From: a virus
Lineage: Duplodnaviria > Heunggongvirae > Uroviricota > Caudoviricetes
Length of the DNA: 18,998 nucleotides
Direction: 5' to 3' (one strand)
IMG/VR virus record: IMGVR_UViG_2850808358_000002
Shown here: positions 1 to 18,998 of the stretch, piece after piece
How positions within the stretch are numbered: position 1 is the stretch's first letter
How the letters are laid out: each line of letters opens with the position of its first letter
Position numbers and translations under genes: made by a program
Notes under the pieces: generated by a model
The model's input: only the letters and a program-made list of their open reading frames with translations
Told to the model about the DNA's origin: nothing
The model's database searches: none

Positions 1-1245
1 CTACGATAACCGCGCATTCAACATGGCTATCTGTTCGTCGTTCATGTCATCAATCCACATACCGTAAATTTCATACACCATTTGCGCAGTTTCATGCCCC
101 ATCTGGCTGGCTATAAATGCCGGGTTCGCTCCTGCCGTCAACAGCCAGCAGGCAAAAGTATGTCGCGTATGGTACGGATTACGGCGGCGAATACCAGCAC
201 GTTTTACTGCTGCATTCCATCTTGCACCCAAACTGCTTACCGAGTAATAAGGTTTCTGTTTTTCGTTACACACCCTGGGCATGAAAACAAAATGCAGTTT
301 TTGCTTTTCAGTTCTGCCGTACTCCCGATGATAAAAAGTGATTTCGCTTTTGCGATGATGCCCGGTCAGTTTGTATTGCTCCTTCAGTGCTTCAAGAGCC
401 GGCTGCAGTAATGTTACCGTCCGGATCCCGGCATTTGTTTTTGGGGGACCGAACATATCAAGTATCGTCAGGTTTCTTCTGACATTCACAATTCCCTTCT
501 CGAAATCCACATCCTCCCACGCCAGAGCTGCCAGTTCCCCGTGACGAAGCCCGGAGTAAACGGCAAATTTCCACAAGTTTTGGCTCTGTCCTTTTTCACT
601 TTCCATTAATGCATTGAATTCTGTTTTAGATAACGGGTCAGGCTTTATTCTGTTTCGCTGTAATTTTTTTACTCCTTCAAATGGTTTGGTTGATATAAAT
701 CCCGACTGATACGCAAAACGTAACAACGAACAGAGCAGGGCGATATAGTTATCAACTGTGCGCACGGTTCTTCCTTTTTTGTTGGATCTTGGATTATCTA
801 GGTAAAGCGTTTCTCCATGCAGCAGTTCATTCCGGTAGTTGAAGATATCGCTATAACGAATATGCGATATCGGGGTACTCTCACAAATTATTATCCTGAG
901 TGTTTTTAATTGTGATTTCGTTTTCTTCATTGTGTTTGTTGTTAACTCTGTCTCTTTAATTTTTGTCCAGATATCACAAAGCTCCCCGAATGTTTTTATG
1001 ACCCTCGTTGTCACCATTTTTGCCCCAGTGCTGGACTGGGGCAAACGTCTTAAATACTCAAATTCACCGGAACTGATTTCATGAACTATCAACGCTCTTA
1101 AATTCCCGGCCTTTTTAATGTTACTGTTAGTAATCTCCCAGCCTTTCAATGTTTCCCGACATCGTTTTCCTCGAAACATGAACCAGATGCGAATGTTGAG
1201 GTAGCCTGAGTTTAACGGACACTCCTTCCTGAAATAGAATGGCAT
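1..1245 (-). CDS. int: Phage tyrosine integrase, 5' end interrupted by IS600 (ORF as drawn starts at an ATG inside the IS600 left end)
   Basis: 414-codon minus-strand ORF ending with TAG at 3..1. C-terminal region has the tyrosine-recombinase pattern (NPYHTRHTFACWLL ... MVYEIYGMW). Native sequence stops at 1196; the first 16 codons (MPFYFRKECPLNSGYL) are encoded by the IS600 end. First native Met is at 1179..1177. Confidence 0.8.
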   Translation of the reverse strand: MPFYFRKECPLNSGYLNIRIWFMFRGKRCRETLKGWEITNSNIKKAGNLRALIVHEISSGEFEYLRRLPQSSTGAKMVTTRVIKTFGELCDIWTKIKETELTTNTMKKTKSQLKTLRIIICESTPISHIRYSDIFNYRNELLHGETLYLDNPRSNKKGRTVRTVDNYIALLCSLLRFAYQSGFISTKPFEGVKKLQRNRIKPDPLSKTEFNALMESEKGQSQNLWKFAVYSGLRHGELAALAWEDVDFEKGIVNVRRNLTILDMFGPPKTNAGIRTVTLLQPALEALKEQYKLTGHHRKSEITFYHREYGRTEKQKLHFVFMPRVCNEKQKPYYSVSSLGARWNAAVKRAGIRRRNPYHTRHTFACWLLTAGANPAFIASQMGHETAQMVYEIYGMWIDDMNDEQIAMLNARLS

Positions 1246-1260
1246 CAGAAGGAGCTAATA

Positions 1261-1563
1261 ATGAGCAGAAAAACCCAACGTTACTCTAAAGAGTTCAAAG
1301 CCGAAGCTGTCAGAACGGTTCTTGAAAATCAACTTTCGATCAGTGAAGGCGCTTCCCGATTATCCCTTCCTGAAGGCACTTTAGGACAATGGGTTACCGC
1401 CGCCAGAAAAGGGCTCGGTACTCCTGGTTCCCGCACGGTGGCTGAACTGGAATCTGAAATTCTGCAACTGCGTAAGGCGTTAAATGAAGCTCGCCTTGAG
1501 CGAGATATATTAAAAAAAGCAACAGCGTATTTTGCACAGGAGTCGCTGAAAAATACGCGTTAA
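1261..1563 (+). CDS. IS600 OrfA (helix-turn-helix transposase subunit)
   Basis: 100-aa ORF with ribosome-binding site GGAGC 7 nt upstream; IS3-family OrfA architecture ending at the A7 slippery site. Confidence 0.9.
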   Translation: MSRKTQRYSKEFKAEAVRTVLENQLSISEGASRLSLPEGTLGQWVTAARKGLGTPGSRTVAELESEILQLRKALNEARLERDILKKATAYFAQESLKNTR

Positions 1564-1598
1564 TCGAACAATGGCGACAACAATTTCCCATTGAAGCG

Positions 1599-2417
1599 AT
1601 GTGTCAGGTATTTGGTGTATCCAGGAGCGGTTATTACAACTGGGTACAGCATGAACCCTCAGACAGAAAACAAAGTGATGAGCGGCTAAAACTGGAGATT
1701 AAGGTGGCACATATCCGCACTCGCGAAACATATGGAACCCGGCGGCTCCAGACGGAGCTGGCAGAGAATGGCATCATCGTTGGTCGTGACCGACTGGCAC
1801 GTCTTCGTAAGGAGCTAAGGCTACGCTGTAAGCAGAAACGCAAGTTCAGAGCGACTACGAACCCGAACCACAATCTGCCAGTTGCGCCAAATCTGCTGAA
1901 CCAGACGTTCGCTCCTACAGCACCAAATCAGGTCTGGGTGGCGGACCTGACGTATGTTGCCACACAGGAGGGATGGTTGTACCTCGCTGGCATCAAAGAT
2001 GTTTATACGTGCGAAATTGTCGGCTACGCCATGGGAGAGCGCATGACAAAAGAGCTGACAGGTAAAGCCCTGTTTATGGCGCTCAGGAGCCAGCGCCCAC
2101 CTGCCGGGCTAATCCACCACTCTGATCGAGGTTCACAGTACTGCGCATACGATTACCGGGTCATACAGGAGCAGTTTGGTCTGAAAACATCAATGTCGCG
2201 TAAAGGTAACTGTTACGACAACGCTCCGATGGAAAGCTTCTGGGGAACGCTGAAAAATGAGAGCCTGAGCCACTATCGTTTTAATAACCGGGATGAAGCC
2301 ATCTCAGTAATACGGGAATACATTGAGATTTTCTACAATCGTCAGCGTCGTCACTCTCGTCTGGGGAATATCTCCCCGGCAGCCTTCAGGGAAAAATATC
2401 ATCAGATGGCTGCTTAA
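1599..2417 (+). CDS. IS600 OrfB (DDE catalytic domain; normally made as OrfAB by -1 frameshift)
   Basis: 272-aa ORF in the -1 frame relative to orfA; DDE-type integrase core typical of IS3-family OrfB (…HSDRGSQY…, …[12 protein letters not shown]…). Confidence 0.9.
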   Translation: MCQVFGVSRSGYYNWVQHEPSDRKQSDERLKLEIKVAHIRTRETYGTRRLQTELAENGIIVGRDRLARLRKELRLRCKQKRKFRATTNPNHNLPVAPNLLNQTFAPTAPNQVWVADLTYVATQEGWLYLAGIKDVYTCEIVGYAMGERMTKELTGKALFMALRSQRPPAGLIHHSDRGSQYCAYDYRVIQEQFGLKTSMSRKGNCYDNAPMESFWGTLKNESLSHYRFNNRDEAISVIREYIEIFYNRQRRHSRLGNISPAAFREKYHQMAA

Positions 2418-2457
2418 AAAAAGAACAAATGGTAGTGTCCGCTATTGCCAGTACACC

Positions 2458-2583
2458 TCACACAGTGAATGGGGTTTCTTTATTTTCTGTCTTAATCACG
2501 TAGCCAATACGCTTTCCTTCCAGATTAACCTCGTGAACAATGTCATCAGTAGTTACAACAGTGGCTTCATAACTGGTAATCAT
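2458..2583 (-). CDS. Small hypothetical protein (41 aa as found); stop codon supplied by the IS600 terminus, possibly 3'-truncated
   Basis: ATG at 2583..2581 preceded by AAGGAG 6 nt upstream; translation MITSYEATVVTTDDIVHEVNLEGKRIGYVIKTENKETPFTV, then TGA from the IS600 end sequence (2460..2458). Confidence 0.35.
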   Translation of the reverse strand: MITSYEATVVTTDDIVHEVNLEGKRIGYVIKTENKETPFTV

Positions 2584-2667
2584 GTTTTTCTCCTTAATTA
2601 AGGTTGAGCGAACCCCTGCCATTGCTGGCATATAAGAATGAAACCGGATATTTATTACGGAACTGTT

Positions 2668-2853
2668 TTAAAGACCTGCCGGGATTTCGTCATGGTGAAT
2701 AACTTTATCGACCGGATAACAGTCACCGGGAATTTTCTGTTTCGCTGCGGCAGTCATACATTCTTTCATTGAGCTGTATACGCCAGTAACCATGTCAACC
2801 GGTTCACCGGAAACAAGAAAAACCGTCAGAACGAGTGCAAATACTGTATTCAT
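2668..2853 (-). CDS. Small hypothetical protein with N-terminal hydrophobic segment (61 aa, two Cys)
   Basis: ATG at 2853 with AGGA 7 nt upstream; MNTVFALVLTVFLVSG... hydrophobic N-terminus then a polar tail with Cys at two positions. Start overlaps the upstream ORF stop (ATGA). AT-rich. Confidence 0.5.
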   Translation of the reverse strand: MNTVFALVLTVFLVSGEPVDMVTGVYSSMKECMTAAAKQKIPGDCYPVDKVIHHDEIPAGL

Positions 2854-3038
2854 TGTGCACATCCTTTTGGCATCAGACGTAAACGAGCCAGCATTGAAAC
2901 AATGCATATTTTATTTAATAGCTCCCGTTCGTGTTTTCTCTTGTTAATGGCATCTTCAGTAAATACAGGGTTACTGATAGTGACACCAATTTCAAAACAA
3001 CCTTCAGACGTATTAACGTTTGGTAATAACGTCTCCAT
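2850..3038 (-). CDS. Small hypothetical protein (62 aa)
   Basis: ATG at 3038 with GAGGA about 10 nt upstream; stop overlaps the next start (ATGA), suggesting translational coupling. No recognisable family. Confidence 0.45.
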   Translation of the reverse strand: METLLPNVNTSEGCFEIGVTISNPVFTEDAINKRKHERELLNKICIVSMLARLRLMPKGCAQ

Positions 3039-3048
3039 TATTGCGTCC

Positions 3049-3600
3049 TCAACAATGAATTTTGAGTAATTGTTCCACAGTCATATTTTTAATTGCGCCC
3101 CGGTTAACAAGAGTCCATCCCTGTTTTTCCAGATAAAACCGGAAAGTCTCCAGGGTACAGACCAGTGCGCCATCAGGAACGGTTTCGGTGAATTCGACAT
3201 TGCCGAATTTGTCGAAGTGAACAACCAGAGTGCGACCATCACCCGGAATCATCTTGTCAGCAGGTGGGGGGTTATTCTGGCGCAGTTCGGCCTCCATGCG
3301 GTCGAACTCAGCAATGTAGGCTTCTTTGAATGCAGCGGCTTTTTTGCCAGTGAATCCCATAACCAGGAAAACGAAGCCGTTTTTGGTGATTTGGTACATT
3401 GGGAGTTTGCGCCCGGTTGAGTCGGTGTATTCGCTCGCCTCAAAATTGAGGGCAGTAAATTTATCTGAGCATTCAATATTTGCGATGGCACGTAACACAT
3501 TGTCGTGTCGTTTGTGGAAGAACTCTGCAACCGCAACAGACGTAGTGACAGCGCGACCGTTTTCTACGGTTACACAAGGGTGAGAAAGGGTAGTAGCCAT
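3049..3600 (-). CDS. Rha-family phage regulatory protein
   Basis: N-terminal region VTVENGRAVTTSVAVAEFFHKRHDNVLRAI... matches the Rha domain pattern. Start chosen at ATG 3600..3598 (GGAGG about 10 nt upstream) so that the domain sits near the N-terminus; the six-frame ORF extends to GTG at 3696. Confidence 0.7.
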   Translation of the reverse strand: MATTLSHPCVTVENGRAVTTSVAVAEFFHKRHDNVLRAIANIECSDKFTALNFEASEYTDSTGRKLPMYQITKNGFVFLVMGFTGKKAAAFKEAYIAEFDRMEAELRQNNPPPADKMIPGDGRTLVVHFDKFGNVEFTETVPDGALVCTLETFRFYLEKQGWTLVNRGAIKNMTVEQLLKIHC

Positions 3601-3692
3601 GATGGCAGCCTCCGCGATGAATTTGATTAACTCACCACCGGAGGTAGCAATCTCATGGGTGGTGAGACGTACAGGGTTGCTACAACCGGTCA

Positions 3693-3893
3693 TCACGGAA
3701 CCCGGCCAGTCTTGCGACTGCCCGCACGCCCCACCATAATTTGAATGTGGCTGTGCATTACGTATAAAAAAACCGCCTGAGCGCGGTTATGCGCCGTGAA
3801 TGACTTCGGGGTAGCAATCCCGGCACCCGTTTTATGAGGTGCAGGTGCACTATAATTCCACCCGTTCTGGTTTTCAATAGCTACATTCAACAT
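3693..3893 (-). CDS. Hypothetical 66-aa ORF (doubtful)
   Basis: ATG with AGGAAAG upstream, but the ORF contains a terminator-like hairpin plus U-run (3766..3788); may be non-coding leader instead. Confidence 0.2.
   Translation of the reverse strand: MLNVAIENQNGWNYSAPAPHKTGAGIATPKSFTAHNRAQAVFLYVMHSHIQIMVGRAGSRKTGRVP
3766..3788 (-). terminator. Candidate intrinsic terminator (minus strand)
   Basis: On the minus strand AACCGC-gctcag-GCGGTT (6-bp stem, 6-nt loop) followed by a run of 7 T. Confidence 0.3.
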
Positions 3894-4056
3894 TTTCTCT
3901 TTCCTTTCATCACCGAAGTGAACTTTGTTGATGCGGTGCCTGGTGCCTCCAGGTGACGTTAACCAGTTAACAATTAACGCCGGAATAAGGGATTTTCCTT
4001 ACTGTTTTAACTGTTCCGCGTGCGCTGAGCCGCATTCACCGCATCACAAAATTCAC

Positions 4057-4100
4057 TTTAAAAAGGGCGGACATCAGCCAGCAATTAAACCGATGCCGCC
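4057..4100 (-). terminator. Candidate intrinsic terminator (minus strand)
   Basis: On the minus strand GGCGGCATC ... GATGTCCGCC (about 9 bp stem with one bulge, 16-nt loop) followed by CTTTTTAAA; lies about 30 nt downstream of a 35-codon minus-strand ORF tail (4127..4236) that runs out of the IS600 end. Confidence 0.3.
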
Positions 4101-4236
4101 AACTGGTACTTCACACAGCAATGTCGTTATTTACAACCGGAGGCGCACTCCCACCATTTAAATTTAACAGACAAGACCGACTCTTTATGGATACCGGAAA
4201 TGCGCCTTCGTGTTGTGCCCGGTTTTATTTCACCAC

Positions 4237-5501
4237 TGAGGTGTACTGGCAATAGCGGACACTACCATTTGTTCTTTTTTTAAGCAGCCATCTGATGATA
4301 TTTTTCCCTGAAGGCTGCCGGGGAGATATTCCCCAGACGAGAGTGACGACGCTGACGATTGTAGAAAATCTCAATGTATTCCCGTATTACTGAGATGGCT
4401 TCATCCCGGTTATTAAAACGATAGTGGCTCAGGCTCTCATTTTTCAGCGTTCCCCAGAAGCTTTCCATCGGAGCGTTGTCGTAACAGTTACCTTTACACG
4501 ACATTGATGTTTTCAGACCAAACTGCTCCTGTATGACCCGGTAATCGTATGCGCAGTACTGTGAACCTCGATCAGAGTGGTGGATTAGCCCGGCAGGTGG
4601 GCGCTGGCTCCTGAGCGCCATAAACAGGGCTTTACCTGTCAGCTCTTTTGTCATGCGCTCTCCCATGGCGTAGCCGACAATTTCGCACGTATAAACATCT
4701 TTGATGCCAGCGAGGTACAACCATCCCTCCTGTGTGGCAACATACGTCAGGTCCGCCACCCAGACCTGATTTGGTGCTGTAGGAGCGAACGTCTGGTTCA
4801 GCAGATTTGGCGCAACTGGCAGATTGTGGTTCGGGTTCGTAGTCGCTCTGAACTTGCGTTTCTGCTTACAGCGTAGCCTTAGCTCCTTACGAAGACGTGC
4901 CAGTCGGTCACGACCAACGATGATGCCATTCTCTGCCAGCTCCGTCTGGAGCCGCCGGGTTCCATATGTTTCGCGAGTGCGGATATGTGCCACCTTAATC
5001 TCCAGTTTTAGCCGCTCATCACTTTGTTTTCTGTCTGAGGGTTCATGCTGTACCCAGTTGTAATAACCGCTCCTGGATACACCAAATACCTGACACATAG
5101 CTTCAATGGGAAATTGTTGTCGCCATTGTTCGATTAACGCGTATTTTTCAGCGACTCCTGTGCAAAATACGCTGTTGCTTTTTTTTAATATATCTCGCTC
5201 AAGGCGAGCTTCATTTAACGCCTTACGCAGTTGCAGAATTTCAGATTCCAGTTCAGCCACCGTGCGGGAACCAGGAGTACCGAGCCCTTTTCTGGCGGCG
5301 GTAACCCATTGTCCTAAAGTGCCTTCAGGAAGGGATAATCGGGAAGCGCCTTCACTGATCGAAAGTTGATTTTCAAGAACCGTTCTGACAGCTTCGGCTT
5401 TGAACTCTTTAGAGTAACGTTGGGTTTTTCTGCTCATTATTAGCTCCTTCTGATGCCATTCTATTTCAGGAAGGAGTGTCCGTTAAACTCAGGCTACCTC
5501 A
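4237..5501 (-). mobile_element. IS600 copy 2 (inverted), 1265 bp, with orfA-orfB fused
   Basis: Same terminal sequences as copy 1 in reverse complement. Slippery run is 8 nt here (T8 on plus strand, 5179..5186) versus 7 in copies 1 and 3. Confidence 0.85.
4280..5437 (-). CDS. IS600 OrfAB fusion transposase (single 385-aa ORF)
   Basis: Continuous ORF: ...[41 protein letters not shown]..., exactly the product expected from the -1 frameshift of copy 1. Also carries R-to-C in ...SMSCKGNCYDN. Confidence 0.85.
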   Translation of the reverse strand: MSRKTQRYSKEFKAEAVRTVLENQLSISEGASRLSLPEGTLGQWVTAARKGLGTPGSRTVAELESEILQLRKALNEARLERDILKKSNSVFCTGVAEKYALIEQWRQQFPIEAMCQVFGVSRSGYYNWVQHEPSDRKQSDERLKLEIKVAHIRTRETYGTRRLQTELAENGIIVGRDRLARLRKELRLRCKQKRKFRATTNPNHNLPVAPNLLNQTFAPTAPNQVWVADLTYVATQEGWLYLAGIKDVYTCEIVGYAMGERMTKELTGKALFMALRSQRPPAGLIHHSDRGSQYCAYDYRVIQEQFGLKTSMSCKGNCYDNAPMESFWGTLKNESLSHYRFNNRDEAISVIREYIEIFYNRQRRHSRLGNISPAAFREKYHQMAA

Positions 5502-5532
5502 CTTACGCTACGTACTTCTCGGGGCGCTTACG
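5502..5532 (+). repeat. 31-bp copy of the IS66-family right terminus, orphan (abuts IS600 copy 2)
   Basis: CTTACGCTACGTACTTCTCGGGGCGCTTACG is identical to 9765..9795, which lies just after the IS66-family transposase stop. Reverse complement begins GTAAGCG, as I recall IS66-family inverted repeats do. Confidence 0.5.
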
Positions 5533-5735
5533 GTTTTGCCATGATTATGCTTCCTGTGATTTACTGTTATCGCTGCCTGTCACAATAGGTTGCTTTAATT
5601 CTTCCTCATCACTCACTCCTGCCACGCTCCGTGGCAGGCCCCCCACAGGAGTACCTTGTAAATGTAAGGTGTTTAAGCCTAAATTAAGTCGTATCACGGT
5701 TAAATAGCAAAGAAAAATTCACAGAAGGAAAGACA

Positions 5736-6247
5736 TTGATGGAGTGGATAAATGCTTTGATGAACTATTTTGTACTTCATCCATATCGCCTATGGGGGCT
5801 TCTTTTTATAATAGCGTTCACAAAATCCACTTTACTCATTTCGGCGATATTGCCACCAGCATCAATTATGATGGCCACTATAATTACAGTCAGCAAGACG
5901 ACTCTTTCACCATGGGAAGCTGGAATCACGGTCATGAGTGGCGCATGGTGCGGTACTATCGTTAATTACCATCTTGGTATAATAATTGGGCATATCCTCA
6001 ACTTGCATGTATAATATCGAGTCGTTCCAATACAATAGAACGGGTTCGCCTTCAGTTGCAAAATAACTCTGTGTCAATACTTTTCACTTCGCGCTTTATC
6101 GCCGTGCTGCGTTATATTGCTCCTTTGGTGGCAGGAATGTTGCAACTTCATCCAGTGAAAGTGTATACAGTGAGTCTGATTTCAGCTGCTAGCTGGTCAG
6201 CACTTTATGTTGGTAGTTTTAGCTTCGTGTTGCCTTTTTTTAGCTAA
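5736..6247 (+). pseudogene. DedA/YqaA-like small membrane protein gene, apparently frameshifted
   Basis: Two ORFs in different frames (5736..6014 and 6056..6247) whose translations resemble the two halves of YqaA/DedA-type proteins (...SPWEAGITVMSGAWCGTIVNYHLG... and ...FTSRFIAVLRYIAPLVAGMLQL...); the second frame is open from 5987. AT-rich region. Confidence 0.4.
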
Positions 6248-6335: not shown

Positions 6336-7361
6336 CCCCGTTACTTTATTCGTACCCCTTATAATGGGGTGTTAGCCAGCCAGACCCGGCATGATTACTG
6401 CCCCCAGTCGTCCATGATCCGGGGGGGGATGTCACCGGGTCTGGTGGGGCGCTGGTAACCGCTAATAGGGGTCAGGTCAGGCACTTTTGCCGGGACCGTC
6501 TGTAACGTGGATGCCGGTACCTGCTCCCCGTGGTTATCTGGTTAACCCATATACAAGGGAGACAGAATGACCGAATCCAGCGATTACGAATCCGTCCAGG
6601 TCTTTATCGGCGTTGATGTCGGTAAAGATACGCATCACGCTGTTGCCATTAATCGTTCAGGTAAACGCCTGTTCGATAAAGCATTACCCAACGACGAAAA
6701 CAAACTCAGGTCGCTAATATCTGACCTGAAACAACATGGTCAGATACTGCTGGTTGTTGATCAGCCAGCTACCATCGGTGCGTTACCTGTCGCCGTTGCC
6801 CGCTCAGAAGGAGTCCTTGTCGGATACCTCCCTGGACTGGCCATGCGCCGCATAGCCGACTTACACGCCGGTGAAGCTAAAACTGATGCTCGTGACGCTG
6901 CCATCATTGCCGAAGCTGCCCGTACCCTGCCTCACGCGCTACGCACGCTGAAACTGGCTGACGAGCAAATCGCCGAACTCTCCATGCTCTGCGGCTTCGA
7001 TGATGATCTTGCCGCACAGACAACGCAGGCCAGCAACCGTATCCGCGGCCTTCTGACCCAGATACATCCGGCACTGGAGCGCGTTCTCGGTCCGAGACTT
7101 GAGTACCCGGCGGTACTCGATCTTCTCCAGCGATATCCCTCACCAGAAAAACTCGCTTCGCTGGGTGAGAAGAAGCTGGCAGCCCAGCTCTGCAAACTTG
7201 CGCCTCGTCTGGGTAAACGCCTTGCAGCAGACATTGCTCAGGCACTGGCCGAACAAACCGTCGTCGTTCCCGGCACGAATGCCGCTGCCGTAGTACTGCC
7301 ACGTCTGGCACTCCAGCTCATCACGCTGCGTAAGCAAAGAGACGAGGTGGCGCTTGAAGTT
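6336..7361 (+). mobile_element. IS110-family element copy 1, 3'-truncated
   Basis: Left end and 5' non-coding region match the reverse complement of 15123..15348; transposase frame matches the full copy up to about 7358, then diverges. Confidence 0.7.
6340..6566 (+). ncRNA. 5' non-coding region of IS110-family element; candidate bridge RNA locus
   Basis: About 227 nt between the element left end (GTTACTTTATTCG...) and the transposase ATG, GC-rich with several inverted-repeat stretches. IS110-family elements are reported to encode a structured guide RNA here. No structure or covariation was computed. Confidence 0.35.
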
Positions 7362-7385
7362 GCATGTATGGTAATGCGGCCATAA
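6567..7385 (+). pseudogene. IS110-family transposase, C-terminally truncated
   Basis: First 266 aa match the 398-aa copy at 13926..15122; ends ...EVALEV then unrelated ACMVMRP and stop. Confidence 0.75.
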
Positions 7386-7542
7386 TTGCCCCGTATGATG
7401 CTGCCCGGTTGCTTAGAATAAGCACAAACAGCATGGAAACTTTTGCTTAATGAACAATGACAGAATCGTCGGAAGACCTGAGGTAGCCTGAGTTTAACGG
7501 ACACTCCTTCCTGAAATAGAATGGCATCAGAAGGAGCTAATA

Positions 7543-7845
7543 ATGAGCAGAAAAACCCAACGTTACTCTAAAGAGTTCAAAGCCGAAGCTGTCAGAACGG
7601 TTCCTGAAAATCAACTTTCGATCAGTGAAGGCGCTTCCCGATTATCCCTTCCTGAAGGCACTTTAGGACAATGGGTTACCGCCGCCAGAAAAGGGCTCGG
7701 TACTCCTGGTTCCCGCACGGTGGCTGAACTGGAATCTGAAATTCTGCGACTGCGTAAGGCGTTAAATGAAGCTCGCCTTGAGCGAGATATATTAAAAAAA
7801 GCAACAGCGTATTTTGCACAGGAGTCGCTGAAAAATACGCGTTAA
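7543..7845 (+). CDS. IS600 OrfA
   Basis: 100 aa, near-identical to 1261..1563. Confidence 0.9.
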   Translation: MSRKTQRYSKEFKAEAVRTVPENQLSISEGASRLSLPEGTLGQWVTAARKGLGTPGSRTVAELESEILRLRKALNEARLERDILKKATAYFAQESLKNTR

Positions 7846-7880
7846 TCGAACAATGGCGACAACAATTTCCCATTGAAGCG

Positions 7881-18434: not shown

Positions 18435-18998
18435 GTGGAAATTAAAAAAATCATTAATCCCCGTTATACCGAAAGTGGCGCAGTAGACTGTGACGTTTTT
18501 TTTGACGACAGGGACCAGGCAGTCCCCTACACAGCCACCGCTGATGATGTCGCTCCGACGGGTCAGCAAATCTGGCAGGAACTGCAAAGCGGCAAATGGG
18601 GTGAGATAGCCCCATTCACTGTGACACCAGAAATGCTGGAAGCGGCCAGAGAGGCCAGACGTCAGGGAATTGAAGCATGGCGCACAGAACAGGAGGCGAA
18701 GCCGTTCACGTTTGAATGGAACGGTCGTATCTGGGATGCTGGCCCCAACTCACTGGGCCGCCTTTATCCGGTGGTAATGGCGGCGAAATCCGACATTGTA
18801 CGGGACGTGATGACGTGGGGTGATGCCGATAATCAGCAGGTGAAACTGTCGATGCCGGAACTGGAAGAACTGGCGGCAGCAATGGCTCAGGCACAGGTTG
18901 AGCGCAATGACGAGATTTATCGCCGTCAGCGGGAGCTGAAGGAAGAGCTGAATAGTCTGAAGGATTTGAATTCGGTTAGGAATTTTATCGTGGAATAA
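18435..18998 (+). CDS. Putative tail fibre assembly/chaperone-like protein
   Basis: Start proposed at GTG 18435 (GAGGAA 6 nt upstream, just after the stf stop); the six-frame ORF begins at 18381 inside stf. Assignment by position and loose resemblance only. Confidence 0.45.
   Translation: MEIKKIINPRYTESGAVDCDVFFDDRDQAVPYTATADDVAPTGQQIWQELQSGKWGEIAPFTVTPEMLEAAREARRQGIEAWRTEQEAKPFTFEWNGRIWDAGPNSLGRLYPVVMAAKSDIVRDVMTWGDADNQQVKLSMPELEELAAAMAQAQVERNDEIYRRQRELKEELNSLKDLNSVRNFIVE

Follow-up and report, generated by a model that had tools for sequence, protein, structure and literature searches.

Which proteins are encoded by the two small overlapping genes at positions 2668-3038 of the window, i.e. 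of the whole stretch of 18,998 nucleotides that was analysed, and might these genes still be expressed and active? Both are found on the minus strand. The first, ORF1 (3038→2850, 189 nt), codes for a protein of 62 aa reading METLLPNVNTSEGC...KGCAQ, and the second, ORF2 (2853→2668, 186 nt), for one of 61 aa reading MNTVFALVLTVFLVSGEP...IPAGL; the ATGA at 2853..2850, which can be read directly from the sequence, combines the start codon of ORF2 with the TGA stop codon of ORF1. Shine-Dalgarno motifs precede both genes, with GAGGA located 7 nt 5' of the first ATG and AAGGA 8 nt 5' of the second. In the program-made ORF list ORF2 is given as 79 aa from an upstream ATG at 2907; the start yielding 61 aa corresponds to the one in the K-12 annotation of ydfD and leads, in 85 of 86 related loci, to the overlap by ATGA (see below). 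With a G + C content of 0.410 across 2668-3038, compared to 0.486 in the neighbouring Rha gene and 0.504 over the window as a whole, the pair is indeed AT-rich, if only modestly so.

These features had already been recognised in a sequence-only reading of the same DNA. The two ORFs of 62 and 61 aa with their ribosome-binding sites and ATGA overlap are all present, on the minus strand and at exact coordinates; the base composition differs from that of the flanking genes as claimed; the gene upstream, which was named as a Rha regulator, matches PF09669 and TIGR02681; and the hydrophobic N-terminal segment of ORF2 is found again as an uncharged stretch at residues 3-16, along with exactly two cysteines, C32 and C45. 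The statement that no family could be assigned holds for inspection by eye only, since both ORFs match curated families over their full length and RefSeq names the genes dicB and ydfD / DUF1482, as outlined in the following.

Identity of the two coupled genes

By homology, ORF1 is DicB. It matches the Pfam family PF05358 (DicB) over positions 1-62 of 62 with E = 3.8e-40 and 135.8 bits (cut-off 27) and, likewise over its full length, the NCBIfam model NF049927 (cell division inhibition protein DicB) with 134.6 bits at a cut-off of 100. Compared to DicB of the K-12 Qin prophage (b1575), 60 of 62 residues are identical (97%) in a gap-free alignment of two proteins of equal length, the only differences being the substitutions K2E and Q36H, and the exact DicB sequence of the window occurs on 512 contigs, where it is named DicB. 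In K-12, too, ydfD directly follows dicB and overlaps it by 4 nt, and the leader sequence is shared for 26 nt upstream of dicB. In addition, the gene is found where a member of this family should reside, namely in a lambdoid early-left operon that is collinear with K-12 Qin and with phage Tritos apart from a Rha cassette, with a DicF-like element about 1 kb upstream. A search of the PDB returned no sequence relative of either DicB or YdfD at E ≤ 1, and in a search of PADLOC-DB (E ≤ 0.1) no model matched DicB, YdfD, Rha or the truncated ORF described below; the role of DicB in phage exclusion is known from experiments and not from the PADLOC catalogue.

ORF2, in turn, is a YdfD-type DUF1482 protein as judged by profile and pairwise comparisons. 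Its residues 4-59 match positions 1-57 of 57 of PF07358 (DUF1482) with E = 9.6e-23 and 80.3 bits (cut-off 25), and the match to phrog_1092 has an E value of 8.1e-34. With K-12 YdfD (b1576), which RefSeq annotates as 'lysis protein', 46 of 63 positions are identical (73%), and both the position and the 4-nt overlap with dicB show the gene to be an orthologue of K-12 ydfD. The two proteins share the hydrophobic N-terminus LVLTVFLVSGEPVD, the two cysteines, the C-terminal EIPAGL and the coupling to dicB, but belong to different allele groups as indicated by MVTGVYSS versus IAVSVHRT at residues 21-28. PF07358 also carries the RefSeq label YebW family. The profile searches which the sequence-only reading had proposed as a check have thus provided a family for each ORF (PF05358 and PF07358, respectively).

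Whereas K-12 YdfD comprises 63 aa, the protein of the window has 61 aa through a private in-frame deletion of 6 nt in the region 2677-2685 (ydfD codons 55-56), by which HHDNNEIPAGL has become HHDEIPAGL. Apart from these two lost asparagine codons, the sequence equals the common 63-aa allele of Shigella, and it is also from Shigella that the nearest named protein relatives of the prophage remnant come. The 63-aa allele was found on 382 contigs, as compared to a single contig for the exact 61-aa version (CP026877.1, the one from which the window itself derives). Both ends of the protein, MN at the N-terminus and EIPAGL at the C-terminus, are retained, with the deleted NN located just before the latter, and the allele of phage vB_EcoM-606R7 is also length-variable at this site (HQDN-EIPAGF).

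The IS-bounded prophage remnant and its upstream cassette

The pair is part of a prophage fragment of 1,776 bp (2461-4236) that is enclosed by two inverted copies of an IS3-family element, which we take to be IS600. The copy on the integrase side (1197..2460, plus strand) contains orfA and orfB with HTH_Tnp_1 and rve domains, and the copy on the upstream side (4237..5501, minus strand) forms with it the inverted repeats I1 and I3, whose arms are 1776 nt apart; these two copies are 100% identical. A third copy is found at 7479..8742 on the plus strand, and across the three copies of about 1264 bp the repeat arms are 99-100% identical. In the middle copy orfA and orfB are fused into a single frame of 385 aa (4280..5437), apparently by a 1-nt difference at the frameshift site, and the outer two copies have separate ORFs of 100 and 272 aa.

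The element at 4237-5501 takes the place of the region which in intact relatives contains ydfC, ydfB, ydfA and the repressor, i.e. of ydfABC, the repressor and the PL-type promoter region, and in comparison with K-12 Qin the DicA/DicC immunity region is gone. On the opposite side, homology to K-12 and to E. coli VL7S7 ends at window position 2598, and what follows is the truncated beginning of a small phage gene of the PRK09790 / phrog_4778 type on the minus strand (2458..2583), of which only the first 41 codons are left (NF007306, E = 5.3e-24, positions 1-41 of 91; phrog_4778, E = 2.5e-24) and whose stop codon is located within the IS terminus ending at 2460. As a candidate for the N-terminus of exonuclease VIII or ydfE this ORF was rejected, because BLASTP comparisons with the exonucleases of Tritos and VL7S7 and with K-12 ydfE found nothing. 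Beyond the IS copy there is an integrase ORF (1-1245, minus strand) whose initial 16 codons (MPFYFRKECPLNSGYL) are derived from the IS end (1197-1245), and the IS copy at 5453 encodes an identical peptide. The match to the Arm-DNA-binding domain begins only at profile position 11, and therefore, together with the IS-derived codons, the 5' end of the integrase is considered to be disrupted by the IS.

In K-12, dicF is located directly 5' of dicB, but no dicF gene reaching the Rfam gathering score could be found anywhere in the window. About 1 kb upstream of dicB there is only a sub-threshold element (4065..4115, minus strand) that matches RF00039 over model positions 1-52 of 52 with 28.6 bits (gathering score 48; E = 0.0012) and might represent a DicF-like sRNA remnant or variant. 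Its terminator hairpin (4097..4070) is followed by CGCCCTTTTT, and it is this 3' half that can be aligned with K-12 dicF, the 5' half having diverged. In one related locus (L008, 1729-1778) the DicF score amounts to 43.3 bits. Next to this element lies a counterpart of the dicF–dicB spacer (3924..4053, minus strand), which is about 82% identical to the K-12 spacer and has a match to RF02076 (STnc100-like) of 33.7 bits, below the gathering score; the same weak match is present between dicF and dicB in Tritos.

While in K-12 Qin dicF is located 175 nt upstream of dicB, an 854-bp cassette containing a promoter-like site, isrK, a C4 RNA and Rha (3065..3918, minus strand) intervenes in the window, as delimited by blastn against K-12 Qin and by comparison with Tritos. 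In the blastn alignments window positions 4102..3919 correspond to 5396..5592 of the K-12 locus (L001), i.e. to the 3' part of dicF and the dicF–dicB spacer, and positions 3064..2598 to 5584..6056, i.e. to the dicB leader, dicB and ydfD, and for 3065-3918 blastn returned no K-12 counterpart at all. The E. coli VL7S7 locus (L002) is collinear across the whole stretch. These alignments place the insertion point of the cassette between dicB and the dicF–dicB spacer, some 26 nt before the start codon of dicB. The cassette is present in a minority of the loci, namely eight of the 86, as well as in E. coli VL7S7, with its RNA elements conserved there, and the block Rha–dicB–DUF1482 can be found in at least 246 complete E. 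coli genomes.

Within the cassette and all on the minus strand, the promoter-like site (3877..3849; TTGAAA-17-TATAGT, 10/12) is followed by a full-length isrK-type sRNA (3766..3842; RF01394, 64.8 bits at a gathering score of 50), which is conserved in related loci and contains a terminator-like hairpin of its own at 3788..3771, and by an equally full-length C4-type antisense RNA (3655..3741; RF01695, 68.8 bits at a gathering score of 45), which is conserved in each of the five related loci of the Rha type that were scanned. The Rha-family, antirepressor-like regulator itself is found at 3049..3696 (PF09669, E = 2.2e-32; TIGR02681, E = 1.3e-33; phrog_995, E = 1.2e-94). Its final codons and stop extend into a dicB leader that existed before the insertion, such that the stop lies inside the ribosome-binding region of dicB. 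Translation of Rha probably starts from the ATG at 3601 with a GGAGG in front of it, and the portion of the ORF that lies 5' of 3601 overlaps with the C4 RNA match. In RefSeq relatives a 'Rha family' protein of 284 aa is annotated whose first approximately 95 codons read through the isrK and C4 RNA genes (L002 5458-6312), and in the window the corresponding region (3601-3893, minus strand) contains two frames instead, a 66-aa ORF (3893..3693) and, beginning at 3696, the Rha ORF, which overlap by TGATG. The long annotation is thus probably an over-extended ORF.

The cassette resembles two known antirepressor modules. Like the isrK–orf45–anrP region of the Salmonella prophage Gifsy-1 it has full-length matches to isrK and to C4 RNA that are followed by an antirepressor-like gene, here Rha, and it also resembles the immI region (c4–icd–ant) of phage P1, which likewise links a C4 RNA to the division inhibitor icd and to an antirepressor. 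In both cases the likeness is confined to the cassette: downstream of the antirepressor the window has dicB and ydfD instead, and no AntQ-like gene was found within its prophage fragment. A tentative and rather improbable idea suggested by this arrangement is that the cassette may put the division inhibitor and the lysis protein under an antirepressor module gated by antisense RNA, in a manner similar to P1 c4–icd–ant, and that it could be the only route by which dicB and ydfD are expressed from the remnant. A search of the accessible literature found no paper pairing dicB with a C4 antisense RNA, and the isrK–C4–Rha cassette abutting dicB is the sole mildly new angle of this locus.

Taken together, it is very probable that the pair consists of dicB and a ydfD-type gene from the distal part of an early-left (PL-type) 'dicBF' operon of a Qin-like prophage, preserved in a remnant of 1.8 kb between two IS elements; by homology, their products are predicted to act through the mechanism described for K-12. 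Of the alternatives, the one that survives best accepts this descent but holds that the genes are the inert contents of a decaying remnant, being untranscribed and/or, in the case of ydfD, inactivated by the two-codon deletion. The state of the locus lends it some weight: IS elements truncate the fragment 2461-4236 at both ends, ydfABC and the repressor/PL-type promoter region are absent, the small gene downstream ends after 41 codons and the 5' end of the integrase is replaced by an IS end. As the repressor-controlled PL-type promoter has been replaced by the IS, any expression would have to start at the isrK-type promoter and read through, or come from the IS itself. Between the two genes and the one promoter-like site there is the isrK-type terminator (3788..3771), and dicB and ydfD may be silent.

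With respect to ydfD, the 61-aa version is a singleton compared to the 63-aa allele on 382 contigs, and the lethality of K-12 YdfD is abolished by changes as small as ΔC1, ΔN1 or L63A at its termini. The lytic activity of the YdfD of the window is uncertain because of its identity of only 73%, its loss of two residues and this sensitivity of K-12 lethality to the termini, and the deletion might attenuate its toxicity; moreover, a related locus elsewhere has already acquired a premature stop codon in dicB. However, both ORFs of the window are intact and have kept their ribosome-binding sites and overlap, its DicB is identical to the allele on 512 contigs, the deletion in ydfD is in frame, leaves both termini in place and affects a site that is also length-variable in vB_EcoM-606R7, and a promoter-like site as well as complete isrK and C4 RNAs are still located upstream. 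An inert remnant is an alternative of appreciable probability, although less likely than not.

Predicted action of the pair and location of YdfD

In K-12, DicB binds MinC and brings it to the septum via ZipA, where MinC depolymerises the FtsZ ring so that the cells filament (PMC6832061). In addition, DicB inhibits the inner-membrane proteins ManYZ in a MinC-dependent manner, by which the entry of DNA from lambda-like phages is blocked (PMC6832061). Over-expression of K-12 YdfD lyses cells provided that division is ongoing, and this lysis is prevented by co-expression of DicB or SulA (PMC8835842). Binding of YdfD to IspG, the sixth enzyme of the MEP pathway of isoprenoid synthesis, was demonstrated with purified YdfD by pull-down, SEC and ITC as well as by in-cell FRET, cysteine-less mutants of YdfD still bind IspG, and lysis is relieved by over-expression of ispG or by HMBPP, the mechanism via IspG being derived from the study of one laboratory without enzyme kinetics (PMC8835842). 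The genes ydfABC-dicF-dicB-ydfD are expressed as a polycistronic transcript from a PL-like promoter that is repressed by DicA (PMC10448788).

By homology with K-12, DicB of the window would take the MinC/ZipA route to the septum and cause loss of the FtsZ ring and filamentation, and it would block the entry of lambda-like phages through MinC-dependent inhibition of ManYZ. YdfD, in turn, would bind IspG and thereby starve envelope synthesis, such that dividing cells would lyse, and the presence of DicB (or SulA) would be expected to prevent this lysis. Since the ATGA overlap is conserved, translation of ydfD is likely to be coupled to that of dicB; synthesis of the lysis protein would thus always accompany and follow that of the division inhibitor by which it is blunted. 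The class of host-modulating, toxin-like or exclusion factors that the sequence-only reading had guessed at proved apt, DicB being a division inhibitor that excludes lambda-type phages and YdfD a lysis toxin.

The second alternative concerns ORF2 only and assumes that the protein is exported or membrane-anchored, with its N-terminal stretch serving as a signal or anchor, a disulfide bond formed in the periplasm by the two cysteines and a site of action in the envelope instead of IspG. Residues 3-16 form a run of 14 uncharged and very hydrophobic residues, with a Kyte-Doolittle value of 3.17 over 11 residues, which is followed by G-E-P; both this stretch and the two cysteines are conserved throughout the family, and the rest of YdfD is acidic. 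Masuda and colleagues are said to have predicted, in 2016, the N-terminus of YdfD as a transmembrane segment. A low-confidence structural model also places a helix at residues 3-15, which might be in line with such an anchor; the AlphaFold2 prediction based on an alignment of 34 YdfD sequences is, with a mean pLDDT of 59.5 and a pTM of 0.30, too poor for topology or for a fold search. The MEP pathway with IspG is taken to operate in the cytoplasm, and a target located there does not obviously explain the conserved N-terminus and cysteines.

However, the hydrophobic run comprises no more than 14 residues and no basic residue precedes it. In addition, K-12 YdfD could be obtained in purified form and its binding to IspG was detected by pull-down, SEC, ITC and in-cell FRET, cysteine-less mutants retained the binding, and lysis was relieved by over-expression of ispG or by HMBPP (PMC8835842). 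Export is thus unlikely, and the assignment of ORF2 as a membrane-anchored or exported peptide, which the sequence-only reading had derived from the same hydrophobic segment and cysteines, could not be established given the short stretch without a preceding positive charge and the IspG binding by the cysteine-less mutants. A cytoplasmic YdfD acting on IspG as in K-12 would be the preferred reading.

Conservation across genomes and phages

At a coverage of at least 80%, the 371-bp pair is present in 3,978 of 5,426 complete E. coli genomes (about three quarters), with up to six copies per genome that are annotated as dicB along with 'ydfD: lysis protein YdfD' or 'DUF1482'. For a comparison of gene order and sequence, 85 related loci were retrieved by similarity to YdfD, comprising 80 viral contigs and five loci fetched separately, which together with the window results in a set of 86. 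In all 85 retrieved loci dicB lies directly upstream of ydfD; as the loci were retrieved via YdfD, this count gives no frequency for dicB genes that lack a ydfD partner. In some PPompW-type phages the match is confined to the 5' part of dicB. The ATGA overlap and a DicB of 62 aa are each found in 85 of 86 loci, the single exception being the same in both cases, namely a locus with a premature stop codon in dicB. Pooled Nei-Gojobori dN/dS ratios of 0.37 for dicB and 0.27 for ydfD, which were taken solely as a sign of purifying selection because the pairwise comparisons are not independent, are a clear sign in the sequences that both genes have been subject to such selection. Neither a lack of conservation in related prophages nor homology to a structural protein, each of which would have spoken against the sequence-only reading, was found; the ORFs are conserved and non-structural.

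The gene order varies around the constant pair. In K-12 Qin it is dicF – dicB – ydfD – ydfE – IS – int, with the same 4-nt overlap, in phage Tritos cI – three ydfABC-like genes – dicF – dicB – ydfD – exoVIII – xis – int, and in E. coli VL7S7 Rha – dicB – DUF1482 – exonuclease – xis – int. The dicB-ydfD DNA of Tritos, mEp460_ev081, HannyBb and other intact lambdoid phages is 87-89% identical to the pair of the window and resides between dicF and the exonuclease/xis/int genes. These phages differ in that they are complete and have dicF directly 5' of dicB, whereas the window contains an IS-bounded fragment with the Rha cassette.

That the two frames are open merely by chance in AT-rich DNA, or that the true feature is located on the plus strand, where short ORFs overlap the region at 2638..2772, 2792..2947 and 2902..3069, has a vanishingly small probability, because the ORFs of the minus strand match curated families over their full length (E = 3.8e-40 and 9.6e-23), are conserved in thousands of genomes, keep their length and overlap in related loci, have dN/dS ratios well under 1 and have orthologues that have been characterised experimentally.

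Both dicB and ydfD are already known, named, experimentally studied and widespread, and as a discovery the pair matters little because most E. coli genomes contain these named and studied genes. What is useful is rather the annotation, in that two unassigned ORFs can be described as a division inhibitor with phage exclusion that is coupled to a lysis protein. With respect to cryptic prophages, the locus is of interest for a pair that survives in an IS-eroded remnant, for an sRNA-controlled antirepressor cassette between dicF and dicB, and for the deletion in ydfD.

Apart from the lambdoid fragment, the window contains further IS debris of the IS110 and IS66 families at 6567-7385, 8605-9762 and 13926-15122. 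The IS110-family transposase is present in one truncated (272 aa) and one full copy (398 aa), and the IS66-family gene is joined at its 5' end to the terminus of the third IS3-family copy. From 10014 to 18998 on the plus strand there is a separate tail and baseplate module (Pfam E217_GP41 and Sheath_initiator, along with tail-fibre-like ORFs), which appears to be unrelated to the lambdoid dicB fragment and is broken by the IS110-family element at 13926-15122.
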